A stretch of DNA of 64,000 bases from an uncultured Acidimicrobiia bacterium (GCA_963761985.1 CAVXIT010000001.1:52003-116002); one strand, 5' to 3'. Numbered from the stretch's first letter, positions 10,753 to 52,583 are shown. The notes: a model not told the origin generated them from the sequence alone. Translations and numbers: made by a program.

Positions 10753-12714
10753 GTGACCTCGCGCTCGACGCCCGAAAAGAAGCCCCAAGTAAAACCGCCT
10801 GGCTGGAAGGTGGAAGGTGTCCCTCCCGTTGAGGACGACAAAAGCCAGCCAATCAATCCATTGCGACGGGCACCTAACCGCCGGGTCCTCATCCTCGCCC
10901 TCGCACTGCTCGCCGCGAACTGGTTCCTGACGTCACTCCTTTTCACTCCCACCCGACTCGAACTGTCGTACACCGAGTTTCTCGACGCCGTGGAAACCGA
11001 AAAGGTGGAGACCGTCTTCTCGCAGGGGGACACGATCCAGGGGCGCTTCCTCGCCCCCCAAGAGAACCCTGACGATGCCAATGAGACTGCTGATTTGTTC
11101 TCGACGGTCAGGCCGAGCTGGGCCGACGACAACCTCGTCGAGACTTTGCGGGACAACAACGTCGAGATTTCGGCGGTCGATCCCGAGCAACGCCCTATCT
11201 GGCAGCAACTCCTCTTCGGTTTCGGACCGACACTGCTTCTCATCTGGATCTTTGTGGCCATGTGGCGTCGGGCCGGCTCGGCCCTCGGGGGCATCGGTGG
11301 TCTGGGCAAGAGCAGGGCCAAGCGCTTCGAAGCCAGCACCCAGCGGACGACTTTTGACGATGTCGCCGGAATCGACGACGCCAAGGCCGAACTGACCGAG
11401 ATCGTCGACTTCCTCAAGAATCCCGGCAAGTACACCCGGTTGGGCGGGGCGATCCCCAAGGGAGTCCTGCTCTCGGGCCCTCCCGGCACAGGAAAGACCT
11501 TGCTGGCCAGGGCAGTGGCGGGTGAAGCCAACGTGCCCTTCTTTTCGATGTCGGCCTCAGAATTCATCGAAATGGTCGTCGGCGTGGGAGCAAGCCGGGT
11601 TCGTGACCTTTTCGAGGAAGCGAAGAAGGTTGCTCCGGCGATCATCTTCATCGACGAGCTCGACGCGATCGGCCGGACCCGCGGAGGCGGCGTCTCCCTC
11701 GGCGGGCACGACGAACGCGAACAGACCCTCAACCAAATTCTCACCGAGATGGACGGATTCACCGGATCTGAAGGCGTCATCGTCATCGCCGCCACCAACC
11801 GGCCCGAGGTCCTCGATTCGGCTCTGATTCGACCCGGTCGCTTTGACCGCCAGGTCGCGGTGAGCCCTCCCGATCAGCGAGGACGCCTCTACATCCTCAT
11901 GATCCACACCCGCAATGTGCCTCTAAACGCTGACGCTGATCTCTCCTCGATCGCTTCGTCCACTCCTGGAATGGTCGGAGCCGATCTGCGCAACCTGGTC
12001 AACGAGGCGGCACTGATGGCCGCTCGTCGCAACCACGACGACGTAACGATGGCCGACTTTGCCGACGCGCTGGAGAAGATCGTGCTGGGGACCGAGCGTC
12101 AGATCATGATGTCGGATGCGGAGAAAGAACGGACGGCCTTTCACGAGGCGGGCCATGCCCTCCTCGGAATGCTGCTGCCTGGTGCCGACCCGGTCCGAAA
12201 GATCTCGATCATTCCCCGCGGCCGCGCCCTCGGTGTCACCTTCCAGTCCCCCGATGCCGACCGCTACGCCTACGACCGCGGCTACCTCGAAGGGCGAATT
12301 GTTGGAGCATTGGGTGGCCGTGCCGCCGAAGAGGTCGTGTTCGGCACGATCACCACTGGTGCCGAGAACGATCTGGTCCAGGTGACGAGGATCGCCCGAT
12401 CGATGGTTGGGAAATGGGGCATGTCCGACGTCATCGGGCCAATCACGGTCATCGATGAGAACCGGGAAGCATTCATGCGACCCGAGGTGGGCGAGAAGAC
12501 CCAGGAACTCATGGACGACGAGGTTCGCCGGATCGTCGATGAGTGCTACCAGCGCGCCGTGAACGTGCTCAAGGAACACCGCACTCAGCTCGATGCGATT
12601 GCCGCCGCTTTGCTCGATAAGGAAACGCTTGACGAAGCGGAGGCCTATCAAGTCGCAGGCATTACTCGGACCGACGACAAGATGGACGAGAAGCTGGAAA
12701 CGCTCTCGAGCTAA
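10753..12714 (+). CDS. ftsH: ATP-dependent zinc metalloprotease FtsH
   Basis: N-terminal TM segments, AAA Walker [26 protein letters not shown] zinc site, 653 aa. Confidence 0.9.
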
Positions 12715-25014: not shown

Positions 25015-25650
25015 CTAGTAGCGCGACCGCTCTTGTGCGGTGGCGATGATTCGTTCGGCCTCGAGCCGCGCCGCTTCGAGCCTTTGTTTGGCGCTCTCGG
25101 TCATTTCTTCCACCCGCGCGTCGGCTTCGACCTTGGCATGGCGGATGATCGAGTCGGCCTGACGGCGGGCATCGAGCAGGTCTGACTCCGTCCGGACAAG
25201 CTCGAGCTGGCGATCGGCAATGAGCTGGGCAAGTTCGGCGGCACGGGCTTCGGCCGGGGCGATGGATTCCTTCGCCTCGCGAACCAACTCCGCTGCCTGC
25301 CGCTCGGCATTTCGGCGGAGCTGGTCTGCCCCGTCGACCATCTCGTTGACCTTGCGAGCAACGTCCTTGCGCGCTTGTTCAGTTCCCCCCGCAGCTGCGG
25401 TCTCGGCCATGAGCCGCAGACGTTCGGCCTCACGAACCAATTCCTCTGACTGCTGTCGCGCCTCGAGTCGGGTTAGCGCGGCTTCTTCGCGGGCGGCTGC
25501 CAACATCTGGGCGAGCCGATCGTCGAGAGGTCGATCAGGGGAAGCCAGATGGGCGAGAGCCCATTCCGCCTCCGCAAGGCGGGACCGCAGATAATCAAGC
25601 TCGGCAGTGAGCCGTTCGATGTCGAGCTGGTCCGACGGTTCCGAGTTCAC
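25015..25650 (-). CDS. coiled-coil protein (Ala/Glu/Arg-rich), co-directional directly downstream of cvnD
   Basis: 211 aa, heptad-like AEAxR repeats, no enzymatic motif. Confidence 0.55.
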   Translation of the reverse strand: MNSEPSDQLDIERLTAELDYLRSRLAEAEWALAHLASPDRPLDDRLAQMLAAAREEAALTRLEARQQSEELVREAERLRLMAETAAAGGTEQARKDVARKVNEMVDGADQLRRNAERQAAELVREAKESIAPAEARAAELAQLIADRQLELVRTESDLLDARRQADSIIRHAKVEADARVEEMTESAKQRLEAARLEAERIIATAQERSRY

Positions 25651-25693
25651 CGGCCCAGCCTATCTTTGGCCCCGAACGCCCCCGCGAGCCAGC

Positions 25694-26282
25694 TCACGGC
25701 GCGGCGGCTCCCTCCAGTGCCCTTGTCAGGGCATGCTCGACGAGATGAACCAGGGCACCCTGCACCTGCAGGCGGTGTCGGGCGTCGCAGAAGACCATTG
25801 GCACTTCTGGCCCGATCGCGAGGGCGCTGGCGACATCGGCCAGGTCGTGGGTCTTTTCTCCATTGAAGGTGTTGACTCGCGACGAGAAAGGGAACCCCCT
25901 GTTTCTCGAAGAAGTCGACCGCCGGGAAGCCGGCCTCGAGCCGCCGGGTATCGACAAGCACGACCGCCCCGATGGCGCCTTTGGAGAGCTCGTACCACAT
26001 GAAGTGGAATCGATCTTGTCCGGGAGTGCCAAAGAGATAGAGAACGAGGTTGCCCTTCAGGCTGATGCGACCGAAATCCATCGCCACGGTCGTCGTCGTC
26101 TTGGTGTTATCGGCGAAGAGTTCATCGACCCCGGCACTCACCTGGGTCATGACTGCTTCGCTACGTAGCGGCTCGATCTCGGAGATCGATCCGACAAAGG
26201 TTGTCTTTCCGACTCCGAAACCGCCGGCAACGACAATCTTGACCGGCAGCAGCCGGGGTCGGTCAGAGAGCCTGGATTCCAT
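25694..26282 (-). CDS. cvnD: conservon Ras-like GTPase (CvnD, MglA-like), split by a +1 frameshift near 25875-25885
   Basis: KIVVAGGFGVGKTTFVGSISEI, LYLFGTPGQDRF in ORF 25647..26282; C-terminal VNTFNGEKTHDLADV...CDARHR...LVEHAL is in ORF 25694..26032 in the +1 frame; an extra base in gcgAgtcaac explains the split. Confidence 0.8.
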
Positions 26283-26637
26283 CGAGCACCTTCCTCAGGA
26301 GCGTTGCGTACTGGTAAGAGTCGAGATCGGTGGCGTTGCCCGTGGGTGGATCGAGGATTTGCAGCGCTCCCCGGCGGGCGAGGTCGGCGACAACTACCCG
26401 AATCACTCCGACTGGCACATCGAGGCGGGCCGAGATTTCGACGAGTGCGAGCTGGCGATCGGTGAGGTCGATGATGCGGGCGGCCTCGAATCGATAGAGG
26501 TGGCGATTCTCGCGGCCCGCCTCGGTTGCAACGATCTGTGCTTCGAGGGCAATCTGGGGAAGGTCGCGTCCAGTGCGGCCACCGGTCATCGTGTATGGCC
26601 GAACCAACCTCCCCGGAGCATCCCCTTCGTGCTTCAC
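26263..26637 (-). CDS. cvnC: DUF742 protein (CvnC)
   Basis: RPYTMTGGRT signature. Confidence 0.8.
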   Translation of the reverse strand: MKHEGDAPGRLVRPYTMTGGRTGRDLPQIALEAQIVATEAGRENRHLYRFEAARIIDLTDRQLALVEISARLDVPVGVIRVVVADLARRGALQILDPPTGNATDLDSYQYATLLRKVLDGIQAL

Positions 26638-27053
26638 TTCGAGGCAACCAGCTCCATCTTCAGTTCTTCGCGGACCTCGGGCGTGAGCACCTGACCGGCC
26701 CGCTCAGCGAAGAGCGCCATCTGGTAGGCGACCGAACCGATGTCGACCGATCGGCTGGTCAGGACGCAGAGAAGAGATCCATCGCTGATCCCGGTGACGA
26801 ACAGCCAGCCGTTGGTCATTTCGATGATCACGTTCGATACTGACCCGGCGCCGAAGCGTCCCGCCGATCCGTAGGCCAAGCCGATCATGCCGGAGGCGAC
26901 GGCAGCCAACCGATCAGCCGACTCCCGATCGACATCGAGCGAGACTGCCATCGGCAGTCCATCGGAGGAAACCACGACCGCCTTGCGAACGGTCGGAACC
27001 GCCTCGACAAATCGACCAATCAGCCAGTTGAGGTTGGAAGCACCAGCACTCAT
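26634..27053 (-). CDS. cvnB: Roadblock/LC7 domain protein (CvnB)
   Basis: 139 aa, conservon position, ATGA overlap with cvnA stop. Confidence 0.8.
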   Translation of the reverse strand: MSAGASNLNWLIGRFVEAVPTVRKAVVVSSDGLPMAVSLDVDRESADRLAAVASGMIGLAYGSAGRFGAGSVSNVIIEMTNGWLFVTGISDGSLLCVLTSRSVDIGSVAYQMALFAERAGQVLTPEVREELKMELVASK

Positions 27054-29388
27054 TCGTCAGATCCCTTCGTGTCTTTGTTTGGTCCGTCACCGAGCTTGCC
27101 GGCGCTGTCGCGGCCCGTCTGGAAGGCGCTGAGGGCAGCTTTGATCCCCTCAGGCCCGATGTCAGACGAGCTCGAGCTCGTTGCACCCTCATTGCTCCGA
27201 TCCTGGAACGACGTGCCTGGCACGCGGGTTGGAAGGCCTTGCTCGGTAAGAATGGTGCCGGCGCTGAGCGCGGGGTCGCCGTAGTTCCGTTGCCCCCGAT
27301 GGTTGGGTTTGGGGCCGGTTGTGGGGTCGACGGTGACGGTCGCGGCGAGGGCGCCGGTGTTGGGGGGCTGCTAATCGGAGCCGGGACCGCATGGAGACGG
27401 GCCGGGGTGGTGGACGGCAGAGCGACCGGGGCTGCGGGTGGGTTGGGAACCGCCTGGACCGGTCGGTTGCGACGAGAGTCCACCATGGCCGGCGGCTGGT
27501 TCTGGACGCGTGGTGGTTCGGGTGGCCGGGTGATCACGGCGGTCTCTAGCAACCCCCGCGGCACGGTGATCCGTACGGTGATCCCAGGCACACCCGCCGC
27601 GAGGCGAACTCGCATGCGGTGGCGGGACGCCAGCCGAGCGACCACGTACATACCCAGTGTCGGTTCGAGGGCAAGACCCAGCACCGGAGGATGGGCCAGG
27701 AGTTCGTTGAGTTCGACGAGTCGCTCATCACCGATCCCGATGCCGTGATCCGAAATGGTGATCAAGTAGCCCTGCTCGTCGAAGAGCCCAGCGACGCGTA
27801 CTCGTTCGGTGGGCGGCGAGAACTGTGTGGCATTGTCCAAAAGTTCCGACATGAGGTGGGCGACATCCGAAACCGCATGACCGGCAACCCGCACCGGTTC
27901 GAGCGCGAGGATGTCGATGCGCTGATAATCATCGACCTCGCCGAGCGCGGCTCTGATGACGTCGCCGATTTCGAGTGGCTTTTCCCACATCCGCGGGCTC
28001 TCGGCGCCGGCCAGAACCAGAAGGCTCTCCGCGTTGCGCCGCATCCGGGTGCTGAGATGATCGAGCCGGTAGTAGCCGGCGAGAGTCTCGGGATCTTCTT
28101 CCTTCGATTCAAGTTTGTCGATCAGGGCAAGCTGGCGGTCGACGAGCGAGCTGTTGCGACGGGCGAGCGTGACAAAAATCTCCGAAACCCCTTTGCGGAG
28201 GATGTCCATCTGCTGGGCGGCGACTTCGACCAGCGTGCTGTGTAGCGCGGAGAAGGAACGAGCCAGCTCGCTGACCTCATCGTTTCCGGAGTCACGAATC
28301 CGCGAGGAGATGATCGAACGGGCAGGGACAACGCCGCTCTCGTCGGGATTGCGCAGCGCCGAGACCAGATTGGGCAGTTCGACCTCAGCGACGCGCCGTG
28401 CCGAATCCGTGACAGCTCGCACTCGCCGAACCAGGGAACGCTCGATGCGCACCGTGGCAAAGATGGTGATGAGGATGATCACGGCCACGCCGGCCGCGAT
28501 GAAGATCGCCCGCTGGCGCGCGGTCGCCGAGTCAAGCTGGGCGGCCTCGGCCGCCTGATCGGCGAGACGGTCGGCGGCCACGATCAGCAGCTCGTTGCGG
28601 TCGGCGGGGAAGCCATTGATGTCAACGGTCTCAGAGGCTTCGCGCCCGGTGACGGCTTCTTCCATGGCGGCGAGGTCGGCGAGTTCCTGAGCGGCCAGGT
28701 CTGATGCCTCGGCGGCGCGTTCCTGCCAGCTGCGGAGCTCGGCCTCGAGGATGTTCAGGTTCGACTCAACCTGGTCCCGCTGCTGATCGGTGCCGCGGGA
28801 GATAAAGGTTCGCACAATCTGTTCTTGCCCGAAGGAGATGCTCGCCGCTTCGGCCAGAGCCTCAGCTGCGGAAACGTCCTGGGCTTTCTCGCGATCGTCA
28901 AGGTCGAGCGTCACATGCGAGATGACATCGAAGAGCAACGAGCTTCCGCTCCGGTAGCCCGAGGCCAAACCGACGTTGACCTCCTCGGCTGCTCGAACAT
29001 CGGCCAGCCAGGACTCGATCGCAGAAGTGGTCGCAGTCAAACCATCGACCAAATCTTCGCTATCGGGTCGCACGCTGGCAGCCAGCACCTCCACCGTGGC
29101 TGACAGCTTGTCGATGGCGAGGTCGGTCTGGATCCGAGCGGACTCGAGATTGACGGGGTCGACCGCCTCCGGATCGAGAACCAAAGTATTCACGAGGTGC
29201 TGTTCGGACCACAGGGTGCTCAAGGCCTCCATGGCCGAGCTGGCGACGGTCGAGGCCTGAGCGGTCTCTTCCTGCACGTTCGCTTGCTCGAGGAAAGTCC
29301 ACGCGACGTAGCCACCGGCAAGCAGCGCCACCAACCCGATCGGGATGCTCGCCAACGCCAATTTGGCGGCCAGCCGAGTCCTAAACAC
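27050..29388 (-). CDS. cvnA: conservon sensor histidine-kinase-like ATPase (CvnA), frame change in the Pro-rich C-terminal region (~27150-27300)
   Basis: N-terminal TM, long sensor region, HATPase (ITISDHGIGIGDERL), Pro-rich tail; the conserved C-terminal motif ...GPEGIKAALSAFQTGRDSAGK and the ATGA overlap with cvnB are found only in the -1/+2 frame. Confidence 0.8.
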
Positions 29389-29496
29389 GTAGCTCCCTCC
29401 TTGCGAAATAGTCCGCAGTGCTTATCGACCGAAACGGCTGCCTTCTTTAGGCGCGCGGGCTCCCCGAGGCTGATCTCCGGTGCGTAAGGTCGAGGG

Positions 29497-29949
29497 GTGA
29501 AGTACTGGCTCTACAAGTCTGAGCCCAACAGCTACAGCATCGACGATCTGGCCCGGGATCGGACGACGATTTGGGACGGAGTGCGCAACTACATCGCTCG
29601 CAACTATCTGCTCCAGGCCGAGGCAGGGGACCTTGCCTTCTTCTACCACTCGAGTGCCAATCCACCCGGCGTAGCCGGCCTCTCCCGAGTCATCGAAACG
29701 AAAGTTGTGGACCCCACGCAATTCGATCCGGAGTCGAAGTACTTCGACGCTGGAGCCAAGCCCGAGGAGCCTCGTTGGCACACCACGACGGTCGAGTTCG
29801 TCGAGAAATTCCGAACATTCATTTCGCTCGAGACCCTGCGAGCGACCTTCTCCCCCGAAGAGCTCCCGATTCTTCGTCGGGGAAGTCGCCTGTCGGTTAC
29901 TCCGGTCCCCGAATCGTCCGCTTTGCGTCTGCTCGAATTGGCTCGCTGA
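29497..29949 (+). CDS. EVE (PUA-like) domain protein
   Basis: MKYWLYKSEPNSYSIDDL...WDGVRNYIARNYL...FFYHS typical of EVE/DUF55. Confidence 0.8.
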   Translation: MKYWLYKSEPNSYSIDDLARDRTTIWDGVRNYIARNYLLQAEAGDLAFFYHSSANPPGVAGLSRVIETKVVDPTQFDPESKYFDAGAKPEEPRWHTTTVEFVEKFRTFISLETLRATFSPEELPILRRGSRLSVTPVPESSALRLLELAR

Positions 29950-32294: not shown

Positions 32295-33460
32295 TCAGGC
32301 AGCCTGGCTGCGGTTGAGCGCCGGAACCGCCGTCGCAATCGCCCAGATCAACGCCAGCCCGAGGATCGGAGTCGCAATCCGCTTGAGAATGGCTGAGTCG
32401 ACCACCAACCCGACGAGGAAGCCAGCCAGGCCCAAGTTGATCGCCCACAGCAACAACCGGTCGGTGTTTCCGCGGTTAAAAAAGCCGGAGAGCACACCGA
32501 ACAGCGCGTTGGTCATGACGCCGATGAACATGGCATGGTCGAACGCCGATCAGCACGCCGATGGGACCCGTTCCGGCTTCCGGATCCAGCTCTCCGGAGG
32601 TGACCAACTGCACCACATAGACGAGTAACGCGATACCGACTACCAGGAACAGAACAGATGTCTTGGAGAATGCGGATCCCCCTGTGCCCGGACGAACCTG
32701 GGGCCAGATGGCGATCACGAAGATGATGATGCCGATCACTTCCAGCGCGGCGAACACCTGGATCAGAGCTTCTATGTCGAGGATTAGGGCCAGGTTGGCG
32801 ATGATTCCGGAGGCGAAGAGCAGCCACGCCGCGACTGCGCCCCAGACGGGTGTTGGCGCCGTTGAGTTGCCAGGCGGCAACTGCTACACCGGCGAGGATC
32901 AAATAGCCGATCAGCATCGCCGGGGGATGCGCTCCTGCGATTGCGGCCGCTGTGTCGTTGCTGAGGCCGGGGAGCGAGCCGTTGGCGATGAAAAGGCCGA
33001 ACAGGACACCGAGCACGGCTCCGATGACCAGCGAGATCGTGGCGAGATAGATCGCCAAATGCCCCGTCGAGCGCTCACTGGCTCGATAACGGCGAGTCGT
33101 CCAGACCAACAGCCAGATCAACACGAGCAGGAGGAGAGTGCCGGCGATGGGTCGGTACACGCCGGTTCCGATTGCAAAGGTTGCCACATACAGGACTATT
33201 GCTCCGAGGCCAAAGCGGGCGATGCTTCGCCCGCTCGCGACCTCAGCATCGGAAGCACCAGGTCCGAACATCGTCAACAGGACGCCGATCACCGCCATCG
33301 TGATCCACCCGAGCGTGCCCGCGTGGACGTGGGTGATCAACAGCTCGTGGCTCGGATCCCAGACGTCCAACCCGTTCAGGATTCCGATGACAATCGTCAC
33401 CAGAAAGACGAGCAATGCCGCCTGGTAAAGCATCCGACTCTGCTGTGCCAACGGGCCCAT
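32295..33460 (-). pseudogene. multi-pass membrane protein (His-rich TM helices, heme-copper/NnrS-like flavour) disrupted by two +1 frameshifts (~32885 and ~32520)
   Basis: three co-linear ORF pieces (32513..33625, 32476..32880, 32295..32531) whose hydrophobic segments read through (..AAWQLNGANT / PVWGAVAAWLLF.. and ..GVLIGV / MTNALFG..). Confidence 0.55.
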
Positions 33461-33488
33461 TCGTGCCTCCTCAATTTGACCGACCTCT

Positions 33489-33839
33489 TTAGCCGACGGT
33501 GAGAGTCCCGCCCATGTCGCTGTGGACTTCGCAAAAGAACGTGTAGGACCCGGCGGCCAGCTCAGCGGGAACGGTGAACTGAGCCTGGGAGTCGCCGGCG
33601 ATTTCGACGGCTTCCCAGGAGTCATCGCCAGAGGTAAAGGTATGGCGCACGGAGTCGAGGTTGACGATCGTCATCGATTCGCCCGGTCCGAGGTCGGGAG
33701 CCGCGCCAAACGAGCGTCCTTCGATCGTGAGCTGTGGTCCGTCGCCCTCCCCAACGGTCGTTGTATTGGGTTCAGTCGAGTTCCCACCACACGCACACAA
33801 AGCACAGACCAGTGCAAACAGAAGTAGGCGCCTCGCCAC
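33489..33839 (-). CDS. cupredoxin-like copper-binding lipoprotein
   Basis: lipobox LCAC-GG, C-terminal FFCEVHSDMGG (Cys-His-Met type-1 Cu ligand pattern). Confidence 0.65.
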   Translation of the reverse strand: MARRLLLFALVCALCACGGNSTEPNTTTVGEGDGPQLTIEGRSFGAAPDLGPGESMTIVNLDSVRHTFTSGDDSWEAVEIAGDSQAQFTVPAELAAGSYTFFCEVHSDMGGTLTVG

Positions 33840-33889
33840 GAAGGTGAATCTAAGCCTGGCTCACGAAGCGATGTCGGTAAATTCGCCCA

Positions 33890-34900
33890 ATGGCACTCGT
33901 CTGCGTCACCGGCGGGAGCGGCTACGTGGGATCCCAAATTGTACGCGAGCTGCTCGAAGCCGGTCATCAGGTACGGGCCACGACTCGGGACGTGGGCAAA
34001 GCCAAGGAGCAGCTAGCGACGCTCGGCGAGCACCTCGAATGGATAACCGCCGACCTCGGGTCCCCGGATTCGTTCGCACCGGCCATAGGCGGCTGCGACT
34101 ACGTCATCCACACCGCCAGCCCCTATGTCCTCTCGGTTGCCGACCCGCAACGGGACCTCGTCGAGCCGGCGGTGGCCGGGACGACGGCGGTCTTGGAGGC
34201 TGCCCTCGCGGCCACGACCGTGCGGCGAGTGGTGATGACCTCGTCGCTGGCAGCAGTGACCGACGAGCCTGACCGGGTTTTTACCGAGGCCGATTGGAAC
34301 ACCAAGTCCTCGCTGACGAGGAACCCCTATTACTTCTCAAAAACCGCGGCCGAGATGGCTGCCTGGGATTTCGCCAAAGCCCACCCCGGCTTCGACCTCG
34401 TCGTAATCAACCCGTCCTACGTGGTCGGTCCCTCACTCATCCCACCTTTGAACGAGACAGGGAGAGCCCTGGTGGGCCTGGTCACAGGTTTGTTTCCGGC
34501 CGTGATTGATCTCTCCTACCCGTTCGTCGATGTCCGCGACGTTGCCCTCGCCCATCGCCTCGCTTTGGAGAACGACAAAGCGCATGGGCGGTACCTGTGC
34601 ACCGCCGAAACCTGGTCCCAGCGCCGCGTGGTCGAGTGGATCAAGGGCGCCAACCTGGGCCTGGGCAGCCCGCCGCGGTTTTACATGGACAACAATGTCG
34701 GAAGTGCCTTCGCCAAGCTGGCGGCGCGCTTCCAAGACTCCGGCGAGCGCGACTACATCGTGACCCATGTCGGGCGGCATCCAAGCATCGACACCACGAA
34801 GATCAGGTCCGAGCTAGGAATGCACTTTCGCCCGGTCGGCGAAAGCTTGATCGATTCCTATCGCGACTATGAAAAGTGGGGGCACCTCAAGAAGGGTTAG
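33890..34900 (+). CDS. NAD-dependent epimerase/dehydratase (SDR family, cinnamoyl-CoA reductase-like)
   Basis: VTGGSGYVGSQIVRELL Rossmann motif, 336 aa. Confidence 0.8.
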   Translation: MALVCVTGGSGYVGSQIVRELLEAGHQVRATTRDVGKAKEQLATLGEHLEWITADLGSPDSFAPAIGGCDYVIHTASPYVLSVADPQRDLVEPAVAGTTAVLEAALAATTVRRVVMTSSLAAVTDEPDRVFTEADWNTKSSLTRNPYYFSKTAAEMAAWDFAKAHPGFDLVVINPSYVVGPSLIPPLNETGRALVGLVTGLFPAVIDLSYPFVDVRDVALAHRLALENDKAHGRYLCTAETWSQRRVVEWIKGANLGLGSPPRFYMDNNVGSAFAKLAARFQDSGERDYIVTHVGRHPSIDTTKIRSELGMHFRPVGESLIDSYRDYEKWGHLKKG

Positions 34901-35418
34901 GAATCGCCGCGACGGCGTCGAACCTCGTCGACCTTGCCAAGCGCATCCCGGAGCTCATCCAACCACTCGGCCTCGTGCTCGCCCACGAGGCGGACACACC
35001 ACGCAAGAGCTTCGGCCCGGCTTCGGGCCGCGCCACTTTCGACGAGGGTGTCGAGCACACGGCGTTCGCTCATTCGGAGCCGGGTCATAGCCGGAGCGGC
35101 CAGAGTGCGGAAGTGGTAAGTGTCGTCGCCGAGCTTGACTCCCCAGCTGACCTTGCGTCCGAAGCGGCGCTCGGCCTCGCGAGCGATAGAAATTCGTTGG
35201 GACCGGCTGTCGGAGCGAAAGCCGTCGACCCGGGCCTCGACCGCGACTTCATGGTCACCCTCGGTGGCGTCGCCTCCAATTTCGGGGGACTCGAGCGGGA
35301 CGATTACCAGGATTTCATCGCGGTCGGTTTTGACTTCAAGCGGGCCGGTCGCCCATTCCTTGGGGAGGCGGCCGGTGAACCAGGCGAGAGGTTCTTTGGA
35401 CTGTTCTGTGGTTGGCAT
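34897..35418 (-). CDS. hypothetical protein (173 aa)
   Basis: ATG start; coding-like composition; no motif recognised. Confidence 0.45.
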   Translation of the reverse strand: MPTTEQSKEPLAWFTGRLPKEWATGPLEVKTDRDEILVIVPLESPEIGGDATEGDHEVAVEARVDGFRSDSRSQRISIAREAERRFGRKVSWGVKLGDDTYHFRTLAAPAMTRLRMSERRVLDTLVESGAARSRAEALAWCVRLVGEHEAEWLDELRDALGKVDEVRRRRGDS

Positions 35419-35425
35419 GATTACA

Positions 35426-35431
35426 AGTATA
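35426..35431 (-). promoter_or_regulatory. -10-like hexamer TATACT (minus strand) 7 nt upstream of the 35418 ATG, inside a 30-nt AT-rich patch (35419..35449)
   Basis: gattacaagtatacataattacttaattacc is anomalously AT-rich for this window; spacing suggests a leaderless transcript; divergent to the DUF222 gene. Confidence 0.3.
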
Positions 35432-35531
35432 CATAATTACTTAATTACCTTGGGCGCCTAAGAACCTCCCTCCAGATGGATCAATGGGAGATTGAATTTG
35501 TCACAGCCAAGGCGTACATTCAGTAGAACAG

Positions 35532-36711
35532 ATGTTCGACACCTTCGCTATGGAAGAGCCTGCAACGGAAAAATCTAGAGGCGAAAACTTGGTCGCCGGG
35601 TTGCGGGAATGCCACCGCCAAATCGGCCAGCTCCAGGCCCACTTTTACCGGCAGCTGGTCGCAGTGGCCGACGCGGTGGCCGAAGCGGTCCCCAAGGCGG
35701 GATACGAATATGCCGCCGACGAAGTGGCGGCCGCTTTGAGCTGGACTCGGCGTCGGGCCGAGGCCGAGCTCAACTTCGCCTGGGAGCTGGCCGACCTGCC
35801 CGCCGTATCGGATTCTCTGGCCGCGGGCCAGATTGACGTGGCCAAGGCGAAGACCATCGTCTTCGGCCTCACCGGCACCGACCCCGAGACCTCCACTCAG
35901 GTGGCCGAGAAGCTGTTGGAGCGGGCGGATCGGCAGACCACCGGCCAGATCCGGGCCCGGCTCCGCCGTTTGCTCCTAGAAGTCAACCCTGAAGCCGCTG
36001 CCGACCGTTACGAGGCCGGGCTGAAGGATCGGAAAGTGGTCTTAGACGCCAACGACGACGGGACCGCCAACCTCCATCTCTACAACGTGGCCCCCGACCA
36101 GGCCGCGCTCGCGTTCGACCGAATCGACCAATACGCCCGGGCGCAAGGAACCGAAGACGAACCGCGGACGTTGGACCAGCTCCGCACCGATGTCGGCTTA
36201 GACCTCCTGGTCGGCTGCCTCCAACACCAGGACCGGGGTCGGAAACCGATCGTCGACATCCGCGTCGATCTCACCACCCTGATGGAGTTAAACGACAAGG
36301 CCGGCTGAGATCCCGGGGTGGGGACCGGTCGTCGCAGACATCGCCCGCCAAGTCTCAGAACAGCAACATTCCGAATGGCGGTTCTATGTCATCGACGGAG
36401 ACCAAATCGTCTCAAATGGCACCACCCGGAGAAGACCGAGCCGACCGCAAAGACGCCGCATCGAAACCCGCTACCCCCACTGCGTCTTCCCCGGCTGCCG
36501 GACCCCCGCTACCCATGCCGACTTGGACCACCGGCAACGCTGGTCCGACGGCGGACCCACCACAGACCACAACCTCAACCCGCTCTGCGCCCACAACCAC
36601 GGCAGTAAAGACAACGGAGGCTGGCGGCTCGAACTCATCGACGAAGTCACCTTCGAGTGGACCAGCCCACTCGGCATCAAACACCTCGTCGAAATCGAAC
36701 CGCCCTAACTG
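35532..36711 (+). CDS. DUF222 (REP13E12-type) protein with C-terminal HNH endonuclease domain, interrupted by a TGA created by a +1 insertion at ~36306
   Basis: N-part 35532..36308 ends ...LNDKAG*; immediately after, the +1 frame reads IPGWGPVVADIARQV...CVFPGCRTPATHADLDHRQRW...HN (HNH) to 36711; removing the t in ggcTgagatc restores the frame. Confidence 0.75.
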
Positions 36712-36724
36712 GTTGAGGTCGAAT

Positions 36725-38219
36725 TCAGGACGAGCTATCGAGAACGGAGATGATCTCGGTCACCGGGTAGGCGACTGTCGTCGCGGTGTCGGGGACGGCG
36801 AGCCCGGCCCACGGCGCCGCCGCGGTCCCCCGCCATTGGACGTCCCACCGATACGCCACCGTGAGGGGGTAGCTGTCGAGGCTCGGATGACAGCGAGGGG
36901 TTGATCCCGGTGGATTACAAGTCTTGACCTCGTAGATATGACGGGCGAGACCCGTCGGGTATCCGGTGAGAAGCGGGAACTCGCTTTCCCCGAAAGAGGA
37001 CGAACTGCCGTCGCCCCAACTGATCGTGACGCCAACCACCCGCCCGGTCACCTCGAGGACCTGTCCCAACGGATCGACGATCGAATCCGAGAACGGAGGC
37101 GGCGGATCCACTCGGAGGTGGGTCTCGGCGCCGGTCAATCCCCAGGGGATGCGTGGGTTGAGGATCGGATCGGGCTCGACGTGGACATATTCGGAAGCGA
37201 GATCCCAGGCAGTGAGAACATCGGGCTGCTCGGGTGTCGGTTCCGACCGGCAGACCGGATAGGTCACGTCGACGATCAGCGGGCCCCCGGGATCGTCATC
37301 GGGGTCAAAAGCGAATGTCGCCGAACCGTCAGCTTGCCGGCCTAGGAATTCCCATCCCGTCGGCACCGATCGCCAGTACCAACAAGTGCCATTGGTAGCG
37401 CTGCCAACCGCCGGATACAGCCATCCCGGCACCCGTCCTCTCGCTGGCATAGTCGACGATCTCGCCAGCAACGCGACAACGGGTCACAGACCCGATCGCT
37501 GCCGCGACCATCAGTCGCGATGTCAGCCCAGCAGTAGCGTTCATCCGACTTGCGCCGACGCAGGTAGTGCAGATCGAACAACATGAGCATGAATGACGAC
37601 CAACGTCTTCATGGAGTCTCCTCCCGCACGACCTCGTCGCAATCGGCCAGCCAAAGATCATCCGCGATACACCCAAGCTGATGCGAACCGCCAGCCCGTA
37701 CCGATCATCGGGCCACATGACGTCGACGCCTTCGACAGTCGGGTCACCTGCAAGATGGCGCATCGATACGGTTTAGCGAACCACGAGGCAATCGGCTCGG
37801 TCAAGAAGGACTCTGCATCGACGTCGACCGAGATCGCCAATCGTCGCGAGGAGGTGCATCGAAGCGAGACTGATCGTCCATCGCAGCTATACCTGCATCG
37901 TGATTGCGGCGTCGTCGCAACGATAGTCCAAAGCGCGTCGGCGTCTTTGCGATAGATCGCATCAAACCAGCCGAACCAGAGGTCAGTCAGGATTGCTTCG
38001 ACTTCAGCGATTCGTTGCTCGGCGGTAGTCGTCGTCGGAGCTGGGGGTCGTCGTAGAAGTCGTAGCTGGAGGAGCAGTCGTTGTGACCACCGCCAGAGCC
38101 GACGTAGTGGTTGGGGTAGTCGGAGCGGCTGTGTTCCAGCTTCGCCAGAGCAAACCACCAAGTGCCAGCGCTAGCACACCCACAATCCCCACCGCCGTCC
38201 ACCGCCGCGTCCGACTCAC
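36725..38219 (-). pseudogene. N-terminally anchored secreted protein (TM + Thr/Pro linker + NTF2/SnoaL-like segment + C-terminal domain) fragmented over at least 4 frame segments
   Basis: pieces 38004..38219 (MSRTRRWTAVGIVGVLALALGG..TTTP), 37658..38161 (AEQRIAEVEAILTDLWFGWFDAIYRKDADALW), 37329..37763 (DPTVEGVDVMWPDDRYGLAVRISLGV; ..AGEIVDYASERTGAGMAVSGGW) and 36725..37471 (GTCWYWRSVPTGWEFLG...CRSEP...) are co-linear on the minus strand. Confidence 0.4.
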
Positions 38220-38251
38220 CCAGGCGAATTTACAGCGAAACCACCTCTTAA

Positions 38252-38770
38252 CTAAAGGGTGTCGTCGGTCTGAGTTTTCGCGATTTCGGGCTCGTCGCGG
38301 CCCGGCAGGGCCCAGATCGCCAGCGCCAGCAACGACAGCGCGGCAAACCCGAGACCTGCCCAGCCCCAGGCGTTTGCGCGATTCGGTTCGGCGACCTCGC
38401 CCGGGGCCGAACTGAGGATCCCCAGGACGGCGGGGGCCACTCCGAGATCGGTCAAAAGGACAGGTTGGCTTTGACTGCTGACCTCGGCACCCAGGAGTTC
38501 AAAGACCACGATGTAGTTGACCTTCCGCACGTCGACGATGATTCGGTACTCGCCCTCGTCCGTCTCGGGCAGCGGTAGCGCCTGTTGTGCTCCCCCCGGC
38601 TCGATCAGGTGGGCAACTACGGCTTCAGCAGATTCGGCTTCGACCGAGAGATTCAGCTCGATCCGCTCGGCACTCGTCTGTGTTGCTGAGGCTGTGGCAA
38701 GTCCAAAGACCCCTCCTAGGTTCACCCCTACAGAGGCCACGATCAGCAAGCTCGCCATCCAATGCAGCAT
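38252..38770 (-). CDS. hypothetical exported protein with C-terminal TM anchor
   Basis: signal-peptide-like N-terminus, C-terminal hydrophobic helix, 172 aa intact ORF. Confidence 0.5.
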
Positions 38771-38814
38771 CTGGAAAGGCTATCGACCAGGCCAACACGG
38801 TTCTGCACTTTCGA

Positions 38815-39345
38815 TTGGCCAAATACGATTCGGACGTGATCGAAGTCGTCGTCGGTGACCTGACCGCCCAGCCGGTCGACGCACTCGTCAACGCCGCTAA
38901 CGAGCATCTTGCCCATGGTGGTGGGGTCGCCGCAGCGATCGTCCGGGCAGGCGGAGCGTGTTATCCAGCAGGAATCGGACCGATGGGTCGAAAGAGCATG
39001 GGCCTCTCCGGTCCGGTCAGGCGGCTGTCACCTCGGCGGGTTCTTTGCCGGCCAGACACGTAATCCACGTCGTCGGGCCCCGCTATCGACAAGGGTCAGG
39101 ACAACGAGGGCCTGCTCGCGAGAGCCGTGGAGGGTGCCCTCCAGCGCAGGGGCCGACCTCGGAATAGCTCGATCGCCTTTCCCGCGATCTCTGCCGGAAT
39201 CTTCGGATATCCGCGGAAGGAGGCTTGTTCGGTGATTGTCAATGCGATCCAGCGTTGGACCGCTGACCATCCCCAATATGAGCGAATTGTCCTCGTTGGG
39301 TACGACGAGGCTGCAGCTGACGACTTCCGGTCCGCCTTATCCTGA
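38815..39345 (+). pseudogene. Macro domain (YmdB/O-acetyl-ADP-ribose deacetylase-like) gene carrying three +1 frameshifts
   Basis: consecutive macro motifs are spread over 4 frame segments: [39 protein letters not shown] / [11 protein letters not shown] / [30 protein letters not shown] / NEGLLARAVEGAL..SIAFPAISAGIFGYPRKEA..IVLVGYD; probable TTG start. Confidence 0.65.
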
Positions 39346-39349
39346 CCGC

Positions 39350-40753
39350 ATGAGCGGTCGCACACTGTTCGAAAAAGTCTGGGAGAACCACCTGGTTCGT
39401 CACGTTCCCGGCGAACCCGACCTGCTCTACGTCGATCTCCATCTCGTCCACGAGGTCACCTCGCCCCAAGCATTCGATTCGCTACGGATGCAGGGAAGAA
39501 CCGTGCGCCGCCCGGATCTGACGCTCGCCACCATCGACCACGGGGTTCCCACCGCCAATCGCCATCTCGGCATCACCGATCCCATGTCGAAGATCCAGAT
39601 CGACGCCTTGATCCGCAATTGCGACGAGTTCGGCGTCAAACTCTTCGGGCTCGACGATCCGCGCTCCGGGATCGTGCACATCATCGGACCCGAACAAGGC
39701 CTTACCCAGCCGGGAATGCTCATTGTGTGCGGCGATTCGCACACCTCGACTCACGGGGCGCTGGGCGCGCTCGCCTTTGGCATTGGCACCTCCGAGGTCG
39801 AGCACGTTCTCGCCACCCAGACACTGCCCCAGGACAAGCCTCTTTCGATGGCGGTCACAGTTGACGGTGAATTGCCGACCGGGGTGACGGCGAAGGACAT
39901 CATCCTCGGGGTTATCGCCCAGATCGGCACTGGCGGCGCCTCGGGTCACGTCATCGAATACCGCGGCTCGACCATCCGCAGTCTCTCGATGGAGGGCCGG
40001 ATGACGATCTGCAACATGTCGATCGAAGGCGGCGCTCGGGCAGGGATGATCGCACCTGACGGAACAACCTTTGCCTACGTTGAGGGCCGCCCCTACGCAC
40101 CGAGTGGTCCGCAGTGGCAAGCGGCGTTGGACGATTGGAGTCGGTTGCAGACCGATCCGGATGCTGTGTTCGACCACGAACTCGTCTTCGACGCCAGGCA
40201 ACTCGAGCCCTATGTCTCCTGGGGAACCAACCCGGGACAAACCATTTCCATCACTGCGTCGATCCCCCATCCCGATCAAGCCGACGATCCCTCCGAACGC
40301 GATTCGATCGAGCGCGCGCTCGCCTACATGGATCTGACAGGTGGCACGCCGATCAGCGAGGTCACGATCGACCGGGTCTTCCTCGGTTCGTGCACCAACG
40401 GCCGCATCGAAGACCTGCGGGCGGCGGCGGCCATCGTCGAAGGGCGCCAGCTGGCTCAAAACGTCACGGCGATGGTCGTGCCTGGGTCCGGTCTGGTGAA
40501 GCTCCAGGCCGAAGAGGAAGGCCTCGATCGAATCTTCAAGGAAGCCGGCTTCGAATGGCGCGACGCCGGCTGCTCGATGTGTCTGGGGATGAACCCCGAC
40601 ATCCTCCTCCCCGGGGAACGCTGCGCCTCGACGTCGAACCGCAACTTCGAAGGACGCCAAGGGCCCGGTGGGCGGACCCACCTGGTCTCGCCTGCGATGG
40701 CGGCGGCGGCCGCGATCGCCGGCCACTTCGTTGATGTAAGGGAATGGAATTGA
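39350..40753 (+). CDS. leuC: 3-isopropylmalate dehydratase large subunit
   Basis: aconitase-family motifs, [20 protein letters not shown]; ORF nominally from 39236. Confidence 0.9.
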
Positions 40754-41238
40754 CCATCCCTGCGATCGACCGCCCGGTCGCACCGAAGGCGTATGGCTAC
40801 TCGACCAAGAAAGAGGGGATGCTCTCCTGGGACGAGGTCCGGGATGCCCTGGCCGCGGCCAACATTTTCTGGATCGGCACCACCCGGCCCGACGGGAGTT
40901 CGCACATACATCCCATCTGGGGCGGCTGGGTCGACGAGACGGGCTACTTCGAAGGCGGTCCCACGACTCGCTGGGGTCGCAACCTCGCAATCGATCAGAG
41001 GATCAGCTTCGGAGTCGATTCGACCGGGATGCATGTCAGCGGCCGTGGATCAGTCACCAGAGGCAAAGCAGGGGAGCAGTTCGACCGCCTGCAGGCGAAC
41101 TACGCAGGCAAGTACGACTACCAGCCCGAAAAAGACGGTGATTTCTGGCGGATCGCGCCAGAGGTGATCATCGCTCTCAAGGTCGGGTCGATGGAGGAGT
41201 TCGCCAACACCCCGACCCGCTTCAGATTCAAATCGTGA
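40744..41238 (+). CDS. pyridoxamine 5'-phosphate oxidase (PPOX/FMN-binding split-barrel) family protein inserted between leuC and leuD
   Basis: 164 aa, split-barrel-like pattern ([20 protein letters not shown]); overlaps leuC by 10 bp and leuD by 4 bp. Confidence 0.65.
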
Positions 41239-50493: not shown

Positions 50494-51077
50494 GGAGCCC
50501 GAGGCGCGGCTCTAGCCGCCATCCTCTGCCTAACCCGTCTAATCGCCCCGAACAGGGTGACCACCAGCCACACCGCCAGGACCGTCAGAACGCCAACGAC
50601 TATCAGCGCGATGACCGGGTTCGCAACGGCGAGCGCGACAAGTCCAGCAACTATCCCATCCTCCATCAACGACAGGAAGATGTTCGAGAACGGCTCGGGC
50701 GAAGTGTTGACGGCGGCGCGTGTCGTCGCTTTCGCCGAATGCGATGACAACGCCAGCGATCCCGAAATGACCGCCCCGACTATTTGCGATATCGAAGGAG
50801 ATTCGCCCGCCAGCAGGTAGCCGAGCACTCCAGCGCCGAGCGGACGAACGAAAGTGTGTACCGCATCCCAGAGGTTGTCCAGGTAGGGGATCTTGTCGGC
50901 GAAGAATTCGATGCCATAGAGGACACCCGCCCCGATCATCACATCGGTTCGCTCAAGTGCGGCCGGAACCTCAAGCCAGTCGAGTCGCCCGGCGAGGCCG
51001 AGGAGGAAAGTTGCGAGATAAAGGTTGAGACCTGCCGCCCAGCCTGTGCCCGCCAACAACCCGATTGTGTCGACCAT
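50490..51077 (-). CDS. DUF4126-like membrane protein
   Basis: 195 aa polytopic, GIEFFADKIPYLDNLWD motif. Confidence 0.6.
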   Translation of the reverse strand: MVDTIGLLAGTGWAAGLNLYLATFLLGLAGRLDWLEVPAALERTDVMIGAGVLYGIEFFADKIPYLDNLWDAVHTFVRPLGAGVLGYLLAGESPSISQIVGAVISGSLALSSHSAKATTRAAVNTSPEPFSNIFLSLMEDGIVAGLVALAVANPVIALIVVGVLTVLAVWLVVTLFGAIRRVRQRMAARAAPRAP

Positions 51078-51079
51078 CA

Positions 51080-51432
51080 GTCCTTGACGATGTAAAGAGT
51101 GATGCTGATTTTTCCGACCTCACCGTCGCCGATTGCGACTCCGACTGCTGTGTTGAGCCATGCGAGGTCGGCGTTGCCCGTCGCGAAGGTGATCAGCTCG
51201 CGGGATGAGCCTCGGTCGGGCTAGTAACAACCGACACGCCGGTACCTCGATAACTGAGCGTCTCCCGCTTCTCGCCAATGGTCGCTCTGATATCAAGGTC
51301 CATGTTTCCATCACTGCGAACCGTTGCGTAATCGACTCCTCGCACCGGCCTTTCACCTTCCCAGTGGCTCGAGGTGGCCACACCTTCAAAGCCAAAATCG
51401 ATCCGTGTGCCTTGCGGCATGTTGCCGAGCAT
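51080..51432 (-). CDS. small DUF3224-like protein whose C-terminal third is in another frame (-1/+2 shift near 51210-51240)
   Basis: MLGNMPQGTRIDFGFEGVATSSHWEG... continues as ...SSRELITFATGNADLAWLNTAVGVAIGDGEVGKISITLYIVKD* in the third minus frame ending 51080; start uncertain. Confidence 0.4.
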
Positions 51433-51509
51433 TCGGGGAGCGAGTGTCCCTTCGATTCTGCAGAACTCTTCGAGCGTGGCCAATTCTTCGGTCTCCTTTC
51501 GAGAACGAT

Positions 51510-52583
51510 TCAACCTAGGCCGTCGAGAACACTCAAGAAGCGATCGTTCTCCTCGGCGGTGCCGATCGTGACTCTGATCCAATCTTTGAAACCACGAACA
51601 ATGACACCGTGATGTAGCAGTTCCTCGGCAGTTTCTCCTCCGCGCGGACCGAGCATGAAGAGGAAGTTGGTTTGCGAAGGGACGAACTTGATCTCGCGGG
51701 CAAGCAACTCCTTGCCCATCCGCAGTCGCTCAACCTCATTTGTTCGTTGCCGGGCCCAGATGCGCTCGGGATGTTGGAGCGAAGCAATCGCCGCCGCCTG
51801 GCCCAATGATCCAACCGTGAACGGTGCCTGCGCTCGCCGCAGGTCGAGGAGAGTGTCCGGTTGGCCGACGGCAAATCCGACTCGAAGCCCCGCGAGACCA
51901 AAGATCTTCGAGAAGGTGCGGGTAACAACGACATTGGGCCGAGCCAGGGCGGCAGGGATGGCGCTGCGATAGTCGGGCGCAGTTACGTACTCGAAATAGG
52001 CTTCATCGACCACCACCAGCACCCGTTCGGGGACACCGTTGATCACGTAGTCGACCGCGTCACCGCTGAGATAGGTACCGGTGGGGTTGTTGGGATTGCA
52101 TAGAAAGAGCAACGTCGAATCGGGACGAACTGCCGCGACCAACGCCTCGGGATCGAGGCCCATTTCCCCGGTCAGCGGCACTTCGATCAAGGCGCTCCCG
52201 GCGAGCGTCGGGGCCAGTCGGTAGATCACGAATGAGGGCCACGGGTACACCGTGCTCGTGCCTGAGCCGGCGACGGCGAGGGAGAAGACGCGGAGCAACT
52301 CCGAGCTGCCCCCGGCAAACATGAGGTGGTCGGCGTCGACCGAGAGCCAGCTGCCGACGGCGTCAGCCAAGTCACCCCAACCATTGTCCGGGTAACGATT
52401 GACCGACACGGCCGCTTCGGCGATCGCCGCCAGCGCTTCGGGAAATGGCGGCTCGGGGCTTTCGTTCGACGCAAGCTTTATGACAGCATCGGGCGAGAAT
52501 CCGTATTCCCGCGCAACTTCGTCGATCGGCCGCCCCGCTTCGTAAGGAGAGAGCCGACTCACCTCCGGGCGAATTGCAGGCAT
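51510..52583 (-). CDS. histidinol-phosphate/aromatic aminotransferase (class I/II, HisC family)
   Basis: LASNESPEPPFP N-terminal motif, PLP-lysine region FSKIFGLAGLRVG. Confidence 0.8.
   Translation of the reverse strand: MPAIRPEVSRLSPYEAGRPIDEVAREYGFSPDAVIKLASNESPEPPFPEALAAIAEAAVSVNRYPDNGWGDLADAVGSWLSVDADHLMFAGGSSELLRVFSLAVAGSGTSTVYPWPSFVIYRLAPTLAGSALIEVPLTGEMGLDPEALVAAVRPDSTLLFLCNPNNPTGTYLSGDAVDYVINGVPERVLVVVDEAYFEYVTAPDYRSAIPAALARPNVVVTRTFSKIFGLAGLRVGFAVGQPDTLLDLRRAQAPFTVGSLGQAAAIASLQHPERIWARQRTNEVERLRMGKELLAREIKFVPSQTNFLFMLGPRGGETAEELLHHGVIVRGFKDWIRVTIGTAEENDRFLSVLDGLG

Follow-up and report, generated by a model that had tools for sequence, protein, structure and literature searches.

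Why does a stretch of about 4.4 kb (34897–39345) between an SDR gene and leuC hold a mobile-type nuclease gene, a compositionally extreme AT-rich patch and a cluster of broken reading frames? We examined this stretch inside a sequence of 64,000 nucleotides (nt) with a G+C content of 62.5%, here called the window, whose positions serve as coordinates throughout. A sequence-only reading had described the stretch as a decaying accessory islet, attributable either to acquired DNA under relaxed selection or to a local sequencing problem. Comparison with related genomes does not bear out the islet. The neighbourhood appears to be native, syntenic chromosome of an Acidimicrobiia-like bacterium, and the stretch is likely a composite of four unrelated things: an AbmR operator and promoter, an HNH insertion, one real decay event and probable assembly errors. 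The features are listed below, each with the evidence for it in brackets.

33890–34900, plus strand: SDR/epimerase gene (Pfam)
34897–35418, minus strand: abmR homologue, 173 amino acids, intact (NCBIfam NF058631)
35419–35449, minus strand: AT-rich patch, predicted AbmR-type operator and leaderless promoter (A+T maximum, conservation)
35450–35485, no strand: spacer between operator and HNH unit, of ambiguous origin (sister alignment)
35486–36708, plus strand: DUF222-HNH (REP13E12-type) unit, with an open reading frame (ORF) of 391 codons at 35532–36708 (Pfam, comparison of copies)
36709–36724, no strand: 16-nt spacer from the HNH stop to the C248 stop (sister and empty-site comparison)
36725–37450, minus strand: body of C248, a conserved protein of secreted type (comparison with the related genomes L082 and L111)
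37451–38003, minus strand: decayed patch with putative remnants of the C248 signal-peptide end and the D body (alignment to L082 and L111)
38004–38219, minus strand: N-terminal stub of D, a 71-codon ORF (comparison with L121 and L111)
38252–38770, minus strand: anch172, with signal peptide and C-terminal anchor, 172 amino acids, intact (homologues in relatives)
38836–39345, plus strand: macro-domain gene (ADP-ribose-binding or hydrolase), broken (Pfam Macro, NCBIfam)
39350, start: leuC

Pfam matches cover the SDR/epimerase gene (33890–34900), DUF222 (35532–36308), the HNH tail (36523–36708) and the macro fragments (38797–39345); C248, D and anch172 gave no Pfam or NCBIfam family matches. Together with the gene calls, these matches confirm the gene content that the sequence-only reading had given between the SDR gene and leuC, its "hypothetical" 173-amino-acid gene now being read as abmR. 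Its "fragmented anchored secreted protein" is indeed fragmented but is not a single gene. The area consists of C248 (36725 to ~37612, minus strand), originally about 300 codons long, and D (~37609–38219, minus strand), originally about 200.

Gene order in related genomes

A leuC-based scan of species-representative genomes gave a best match of 82% amino acid identity and assigned the organism to Acidimicrobiia-like Actinomycetota. The key comparator, a sister genome (L111; ENA ERZ25039550, contig_70001), was reached via one intact 391-amino-acid HNH relative from a protein search. It is colinear with the window from 25558 to 46689 at 92.5% nucleotide identity, so that the alignment covers 21 kb, i.e. 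16.7 kb of flanks and the 4.4-kb stretch. Its gene order is that of the window: SDR, abmR, HNH, C248, D, anch172, macro, leuC. A metagenome scan with the 173-amino-acid protein yielded further relatives, L081 (85% amino acid identity) and L082 (78%), that are closer than the distant relatives L001–L003. The order in L082 is D, C248, abmR and then SDR, and L121 carries the same neighbourhood at 75% nucleotide identity. In L001–L003, abmR directly adjoins anch172 and leuC, without C248, D or HNH; macro is present and intact in L001 and missing from L002 and L003. Homologues of anch172 adjoin leuC or abmR in L001, L002, L003, L111 and L121.

A conserved AT-rich patch upstream of abmR

The 173-amino-acid protein matches the NCBIfam equivalog model NF058631 (sRNA_TF_AbmR) with 215.5 bits against a cutoff of 160 (E=3.4e-64). 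Its L111 orthologue is 98% identical and has precomputed Pfam matches to Rv1265_N and Mb1296_C. Between the two genes, codon positions 1 and 2 differ at a rate of 0.009 and four-fold degenerate sites at 0.206. The product of 34897–35418 is predicted from these matches to be an AbmR homologue, i.e. an ATP-binding, RHH-like transcription factor of the Rv1265 family.

The A+T maximum of the window (25 of 30 nt at 35417–35447; the best elsewhere is 20 of 30) lies at the start of this gene. A −10 box, TATACT, is found on the minus strand at 35431–35426, 7 nt before the ATG at 35418–35416. Both the only strongly AT-rich 30-mer of the window and the spacing of the box had been pointed out correctly in the sequence-only reading. 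On the minus strand the patch reads GGTAATTAAGTAATTATGTATACTTGTAATC-ATG, which can be written as tandem 8-nt units, GGTAATTA-AGTAATTA-TGTATACT-TGTAATC-ATG, four units falling within 35419–35449. The pattern GTAA-N4-GTAA occurs just before the start codon in 28 of 29 abmR upstream regions, from homologues down to 45% amino acid identity. Its background frequency is 50 matches in 3.6 Mb, with one in the 64-kb window. As a sequence signature, this cis-element is conserved and specific to abmR.

In Mycobacterium tuberculosis, AbmR represses itself by binding a region that contains its own transcription start (PMC6282994), and the determinant of its operator, an AT-rich array of four tandem ATGN5 octamers, is found nowhere else in the genome (bioRxiv 10.1101/2021.09.03.458936). 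The window units AAGTAATT, ATGTATAC, TTGTAATC and ATG... fit this published tandem-octamer description. By analogy with the M. tuberculosis experiments AbmR would bind the patch, which we interpret as a putative autoregulatory AbmR operator with 8-nt boxes of the GTAAT/ATGN5 type, overlapping a leaderless promoter. A sigma-70 consensus scan of the region did not find a promoter, which is no surprise if the promoter is a leaderless actinobacterial one.

The AT-rich patch is kept in L081, L082, L111 and L121, including the loci that have no HNH insertion. Its presence at these loci argues that it is a native operator which predates the insertion and no island marker, contrary to the earlier view of the patch as part of an islet. 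At the empty-site loci the stop codon of the preceding gene is 2–6 nt from the boxes, which leaves no room for a divergent small RNA (sRNA). If the operator assignment is right, the M. tuberculosis type of AbmR operator has been kept as GTAAT octamer arrays across distant Actinomycetota, and these arrays would provide a sharper, "cross-phylum" consensus and a simple genomic marker for abmR promoters.

As a separate observation, a 16-nt double unit (GTATACTTGTAATCAT) stands twice in tandem, without mismatch, in the abmR operator of L081 (688–733); the duplication adds two boxes and a second TATACT-N7-ATG.

The DUF222-HNH unit as a putative old insertion

The gene next to the operator encodes a DUF222 domain (PF02720, E=2e-13, residues 24–221) and an HNH domain (PF01844, E=2e-4 on a 61-amino-acid tail). 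An extra G at 36303 (GGCC[G]GCT) splits it into an ORF of 258 amino acids and the tail, and the ORF is therefore not intact in the window. The reconstructed 391-amino-acid protein aligns end to end with intact 391-amino-acid relatives at 87% identity, including the CxxC...H...N...H region. A protein search with it also returned the 258-amino-acid fragment of the window itself, at 100% identity. By domain content, the unit belongs to the known REP13E12/DUF222-HNH kind.

Copies at other loci allowed us to delimit the unit. Another assembly, L120, contains an 86% nucleotide-identical copy that matches only 35486–36707 of the window and is located between a CsoR-like gene and fdhE. In L121 the HNH copy occupies another site in the same neighbourhood, adjoining anch172 in the opposite relative orientation, and more distant copies with 64–72% amino acid identity are found in other unrelated contexts. 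The 64-kb window has a single copy. In an alignment of five copies, conservation begins about 46 nt upstream of the ATG and ends at the stop codon, with none outside. The unit is accordingly a 46-nt leader with a promoter-like TTGAAT...TACATT followed by the 391-codon ORF, 1,223 bp in all. It is missing from the same junction in three relatives: in L081 and L082 the end of C248 is 2–6 nt from the AT-rich sequence, followed by abmR, and the C248–abmR junction of L121 is likewise empty.

L111 shares the 16-nt spacer at 36709–36724 without any difference, and the empty sites lack it. The spacer at 35450–35485 is highly divergent and indel-rich relative to L111 and has no homology to HNH copies at other loci. 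Terminal inverted repeats and a target-site duplication were sought around the unit and none were found. A 17-nt inverted pair (35383–35399/35457–35473) was considered as a terminal repeat and rejected because L111 does not conserve it. A special cis-acting role for the final 30 nt of the HNH ORF was likewise rejected, as internal segments are equally conserved.

The composition of the unit is host-like, with a GC content of 63.3% and 0.74–0.80 at third codon positions (GC3). Relative to L111, its four-fold sites differ at 0.228 and positions 1 and 2 at 0.071. Because the four-fold divergence matches that of the neighbours and positions 1 and 2 are low, the unit appears to have been inherited vertically since before the split from L111, under purifying selection weaker than that on the neighbours. 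It seems to be the only inserted DNA in the stretch, and an old one: it would have entered between the C248 stop codon and the operator in an ancestor shared with L111. Filled and empty sites as well as copies at other loci are observed, and the movement itself would presumably be endonuclease-driven, by analogy with free-standing homing endonuclease genes.

In five of five independent loci (window, L112, L114, L117, L120) the gene upstream of HNH is on the opposite strand, and the unit always sits in divergent, promoter-containing intergenic DNA. A tentative and somewhat doubtful proposal is that the DUF222-HNH gene alone forms a complete mobile unit of promoter and ORF, with no repeats, duplication or partner gene, and inserts into intergenic DNA near promoters in the manner of a free-standing homing endonuclease gene; placed beside the AbmR operator, in the position that the AbmR-activated sRNA Mcr11 has in mycobacteria, its expression may be under AbmR control. 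If this were true, the filled and empty pairs (window and L111 versus L081, L082 and L121) would be a defined substrate for testing movement of the REP13E12 type. To our knowledge, the mode of movement of such elements has never been shown, and one delimited to promoter and ORF, with matching empty sites, would make mobility testable. We likewise know of no established role for the DUF222 domain.

Frame disruptions are concentrated in the stretch

Frameshifts were called by frameshift-aware alignment to intact homologues and from the alignment between the window and L111. The stretch contains 14 frameshifts and one in-frame stop, distributed as follows.

HNH: 1 frameshift (36303)
C248, first ~60 codons: 3 frameshifts (~37549, 37491, 37439)
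D: 5 frameshifts (~38039, 37903, 37848, 37703, 37660) and an in-frame TAA (~37775)
macro: 5 frameshifts (insertions at 38959, 38989, 39090 and 39145; deletion at 39168)

The 16.7 kb of flanks comparable with L111 have three window-specific frame-disrupting indels (25877, 32549, 32834) against 14 in 4.4 kb. The concentration, for which the sequence-only reading had counted at least seven disruptions, is real and exceeds 10-fold. It has two causes, a pseudogene patch (8) and a cluster in macro (5).

An intrinsic census with a hidden Markov model of codon usage was discarded and redone against L111, as it flagged clean Pfam boundaries (EVE/histidine kinase, aminotransferase, DUF4126) and missed 25877. 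The EVE-domain gene (29497–29946; PF01878, E=5e-45) is complete and lies directly upstream of a MASE1-PAS histidine kinase gene, with a clean gene boundary. Outside the region comparable with L111, one ORF of a DUF3237 gene (~51077–51729) matches profile positions 2–86 of 149; the remainder is apparently in another frame near 51200, probably through another frameshift.

Real decay in D and the 5′ end of C248

Between 37440 and 38000, the window and L111 differ at 0.20–0.23 of all sites, with many indels in both directions. In the flanking genes, such a rate is seen at four-fold sites (0.21–0.25), compared with 0.01–0.03 at positions 1 and 2. After frame correction, 34–42% of amino acids differ in the decayed patch versus 4.7% in the C248 body. 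In L111 the indels and the stop codon of this patch are not those of the window. The patch crosses from one gene into the next, since the original C248 ATG (37612–37610) overlaps the D stop (37611–37609) as ATGA. Four of the five D frameshifts and the TAA are inside the patch (37451–38003), and the fifth (~38039) is in the stub. The stub encodes a transmembrane anchor and a Thr/Pro-rich linker and ends past this +1 frameshift; its first 44 codons are identical to L111. In L121 the anchor, linker and domain of D are in one reading frame. The +1 shift is common to the window (38039) and L111 (12503), in the context CAGC[T]CCGACGA. Because indel-type errors cannot explain neutral-level substitution or a shared lesion, 37451–38003 is best read as a true, old pseudogene remnant, and it is only here that relaxed selection can be demonstrated. 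Low GC of the patch (0.587) was rejected as a sign of AT drift or decay, as the intact D gene of L082 is equally low (0.576).

The body of C248 has a different history. It is 77% identical in amino acids to the intact gene of L082, and its divergence from L111 (0.026 at positions 1 and 2, 0.252 at four-fold sites) indicates strong purifying selection. In the window as in L111, the ATG at 37450 shares the frame of the body owing to a +1 shift just after it. The body may be re-initiated there, or at the TTG at 37471, either being a plausible new start. Relative to L082, the +1 shifts of the two genomes (window 37439–37450, L111 ~11906–11912) have different inserted bases about 5 nt apart, GAG[A]GG versus AGT[C]GAG. 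They could reflect either a shared shift followed by a compensated indel pair or two independent events, each restoring the ATG start. From the neutral divergence and the shared lesion, which are seen directly, we infer an order of events in which the +1 frameshift in the D linker (~38039) would have cut D to its 71-codon stub, after which neutral drift would have affected the remainder of D together with the 5′ end of C248, to which it was translationally coupled, and each lineage would have gathered indels and stops of its own. Selection would have continued to act on the C248 body, with translation probably re-initiated at the ATG that another shift brought into frame.

All 14 frameshifts and the stop could alternatively be consensus errors in a low-quality patch in which every gene is intact. 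This is in line with the many single-base insertions that the window, L111 and L121 carry in essential or conserved genes, with the fact that D is broken in all three of these error-prone assemblies and intact only in L082 (short-read, judged by contig naming), and with the clustering of indels in patches that ignore gene boundaries. A base mismatch of 20–23% is, however, beyond what indel errors produce: the D patch diverges at the local synonymous rate, while positions 1 and 2 of the flanking genes differ by 1–3%. In addition, the +1 at 38039 recurs in two independent assemblies in the same context, and the in-frame stops are at different places in the two genomes. We consider this alternative improbable.

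Probable consensus errors in macro and other genes

The composite reading takes a different view of the remaining disruptions. The macro fragments match Pfam Macro, and the gene is intact in L111 (168 amino acids; NCBIfam ADP-ribose-binding models, E=1.9e-52). With the indels removed, the window protein is 94% identical to that of L111, with differences of 0.027 at positions 1 and 2 and 0.354 at four-fold sites. All catalytic motifs are kept in the corrected gene, and a proxy for the non-synonymous/synonymous ratio is below 0.1. Five indels within 210 nt are thus accompanied by unrelaxed constraint. This does not fit natural decay, and the indels are most likely consensus errors.

Two genes outside the stretch show comparable disruptions. 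A 392-amino-acid polytopic membrane protein (32295–33625; no Pfam family), encoded between a cytochrome c gene and a cupredoxin gene, is divided into three frames by two single-base insertions (32549, 32834) and is intact in L111. In a conservon-like operon (25558–29420; histidine kinase, Roadblock/LC7, DUF742, ATP_bind_1 GTPase), an extra T at 25877, specific to the window, shifts the frame of the final ~60 codons of the GTPase gene, although its protein shares 99.5% identity with that of L111.

None of the macro, membrane protein, GTPase and HNH genes diverges from L111 at the neutral all-site rate. In L111 itself, leuC contains four single-base insertions, and about 12 more fall in genes whose window copies are intact. 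Altogether, 26 of 27 single-base differences in conserved genes are an extra base in the disrupted assembly. Mira, Ochman and Moran reportedly described in 2001 that indels in bacterial pseudogenes are biased towards deletion; the excess of insertions is opposite to this bias and counts for errors. The single-base lesions in these four otherwise strongly constrained genes would most likely be consensus errors of an error-prone assembly, five in macro and one in HNH inside the stretch, two in the membrane protein and one in the GTPase outside it. This assembly was probably made from long reads, and the contig names of sister assemblies (contig_NNNNN) suggest long-read assemblers.

The opposite possibility, which was the main proposal of the sequence-only reading, is that everything is real and the 4.4 kb are an accessory segment under relaxed selection in which macro, HNH, C248 and D are genuine pseudogenes. 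The more than 10-fold enrichment over comparable flanks would be expected from it, macro is dispensable in that L002 and L003 do without it, and HNH elements often decay. Five indels in macro without any excess of amino acid change and with all motifs kept are hard to reconcile with it, as are the four lesions of the same kind in leuC of L111, the 26 of 27 inserted bases, and the strong purifying selection on the C248 body, abmR and anch172 (for the last, 0.029 at positions 1 and 2 and 0.230 at four-fold sites versus L111). We regard this possibility as quite unlikely.

Both halves of the earlier interpretation hold in part. Acquired DNA would be limited to the 1.22-kb HNH unit and relaxed selection to ~37451–38003, and neither extends to the whole stretch. 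The local sequencing problem fits the macro frameshifts, which behave like consensus errors, and fails for the 37451–38003 patch, given its neutral-rate divergence and shared lesion.

Several observations weigh against the composite reading. The HNH frameshift at 36303 could equally be a real inactivation or an assembly error, and the class of errors is one that we infer from sequence comparison. Only 9 of the 27 single-base sites adjoin a homopolymer, which is not the textbook signature of any one platform. CGCG, considered as a methylation-type motif, lies near 11 of the 27 sites against 3.5 expected, an enrichment that is marginal after multiple-testing correction. On the side of real decay, D is also fragmented in L121, another error-prone assembly, and a part of the window's D indels could be errors superimposed on real decay. 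Since divergence between the window and L111 is mosaic along the 21 kb (0.5–14% per 200 nt), a recombined divergent allele could also be partly responsible for how strongly the D patch diverges.

The consequence is a caution for annotation. A cluster of frameshifts beside a mobile-looking gene can mimic a decaying island, and a single sister comparison turned most of the "decay" here into probable consensus error. Only about 0.55 kb would be real pseudogene, and a pseudogene label on macro, HNH, the membrane protein or the GTPase would then be wrong.

Signs of a genomic island

The comparison of GC and codon usage that the sequence-only reading had proposed gave a host-like composition and no island signal: GC is 0.63–0.65 and GC3 0.72–0.80 in the genes, versus 0.625 for the window. 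No tRNA gene was found in 28–46 kb and no flanking repeats of the stretch were found; the absence of an integrase is based solely on the Pfam scans and gene calls. A horizontally acquired island has no compositional or tRNA sign here. Synteny, also proposed as a check, gave a divided answer: the colinear order in L111 contradicts an islet, while the HNH unit has no counterpart at the junction of L081, L082 and L121, in line with an insertion. No close relative was seen in which the flanks are joined directly, and the whole stretch is present in L111. We therefore consider it very improbable that the stretch is a horizontally acquired genomic island for which the AT-rich patch would be the boundary or a foreign promoter: in spite of the mobile-type HNH gene, the extreme composition of the patch and the lack of C248 and D in L001–L003, GC and GC3 are host-like, the tRNA gene, flanking repeats and integrase that were looked for are missing within the scope just given, the order is kept in L111 and, apart from HNH, in L082, L081 and L121, and the patch is found upstream of abmR in 28 of 29 loci whatever the neighbours.

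Further observations in the neighbourhood

About 130–170 nt at ~38090–38260, comprising the first 44 D-stub codons and the intergenic sequence upstream, are identical in the window and L111, at a local neutral divergence of ~23%. This tract and the mosaic divergence suggest recombination between lineages, or constraint at the nucleotide level on the tract. Two 15-nt indels distinguish the window from L111, one at 34899, where the stops of SDR and abmR overlap, and one at 45503, at a gene end near 45.5 kb; they are in-frame or intergenic, unlike the single-base class. A PNPOx-like gene (pyridoxamine 5′-phosphate oxidase family; 40744–41238) lies between leuC and leuD, with an overlap at either end. 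L001 and L111 have it as well; L002, L003 and L004, where leuC adjoins leuD, do not.

Comparison with known systems

The probable errors resemble the indel-type consensus errors of long-read metagenome assemblies in that isolated single-base indels split conserved genes, differ in position between sister assemblies and form local clusters. They differ in that almost all are insertions and most are outside homopolymers.

The HNH unit resembles REP13E12 (the "13E12 repeat family") of M. tuberculosis, with an N-terminal DUF222 and a C-terminal HNH domain in a protein of about 390–440 amino acids. REP13E12 copies, which are scattered over unrelated contexts, count as repetitive or mobile DNA (Gordon et al. 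1999, cited in PMC10589994). Here, the host is Acidimicrobiia-like and not Mycobacterium, and one copy was counted, in the 64-kb window only. The unit is delimited to 1,223 bp via filled and empty sites, and we found no such comparison reported for REP13E12.

Free-standing HNH homing endonuclease genes of phages, e.g. T4 mob, are single nuclease ORFs with their own promoter in intergenic positions, without terminal repeats, target-site duplication or transposase. The unit described here is similar, i.e. a single intergenic ORF with its own promoter-like leader and with no terminal repeats, duplication or transposase. The setting differs, being a bacterial chromosome, and the likeness is one of sequence features.

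For the AT-rich patch, the mcr11-abmR locus of M. tuberculosis offers the closest parallel. Both have an equivalog-level AbmR protein and an AT-rich operator, here predicted, of about four tandem 8-nt units with (A/T)TG; in both, operator and transcription start of the gene overlap, and a single operator is present in the sequence examined. No Mcr11-like sRNA was found here, as Rfam gave chance matches only and no credible sRNA in 33500–40000, without a check that it holds an Mcr11 model. In insertion-free relatives, the upstream gene has its stop codon right beside the operator. The core is GTAAT, a sharper consensus than ATGN5, and in the window it is the HNH gene that holds the divergent position.

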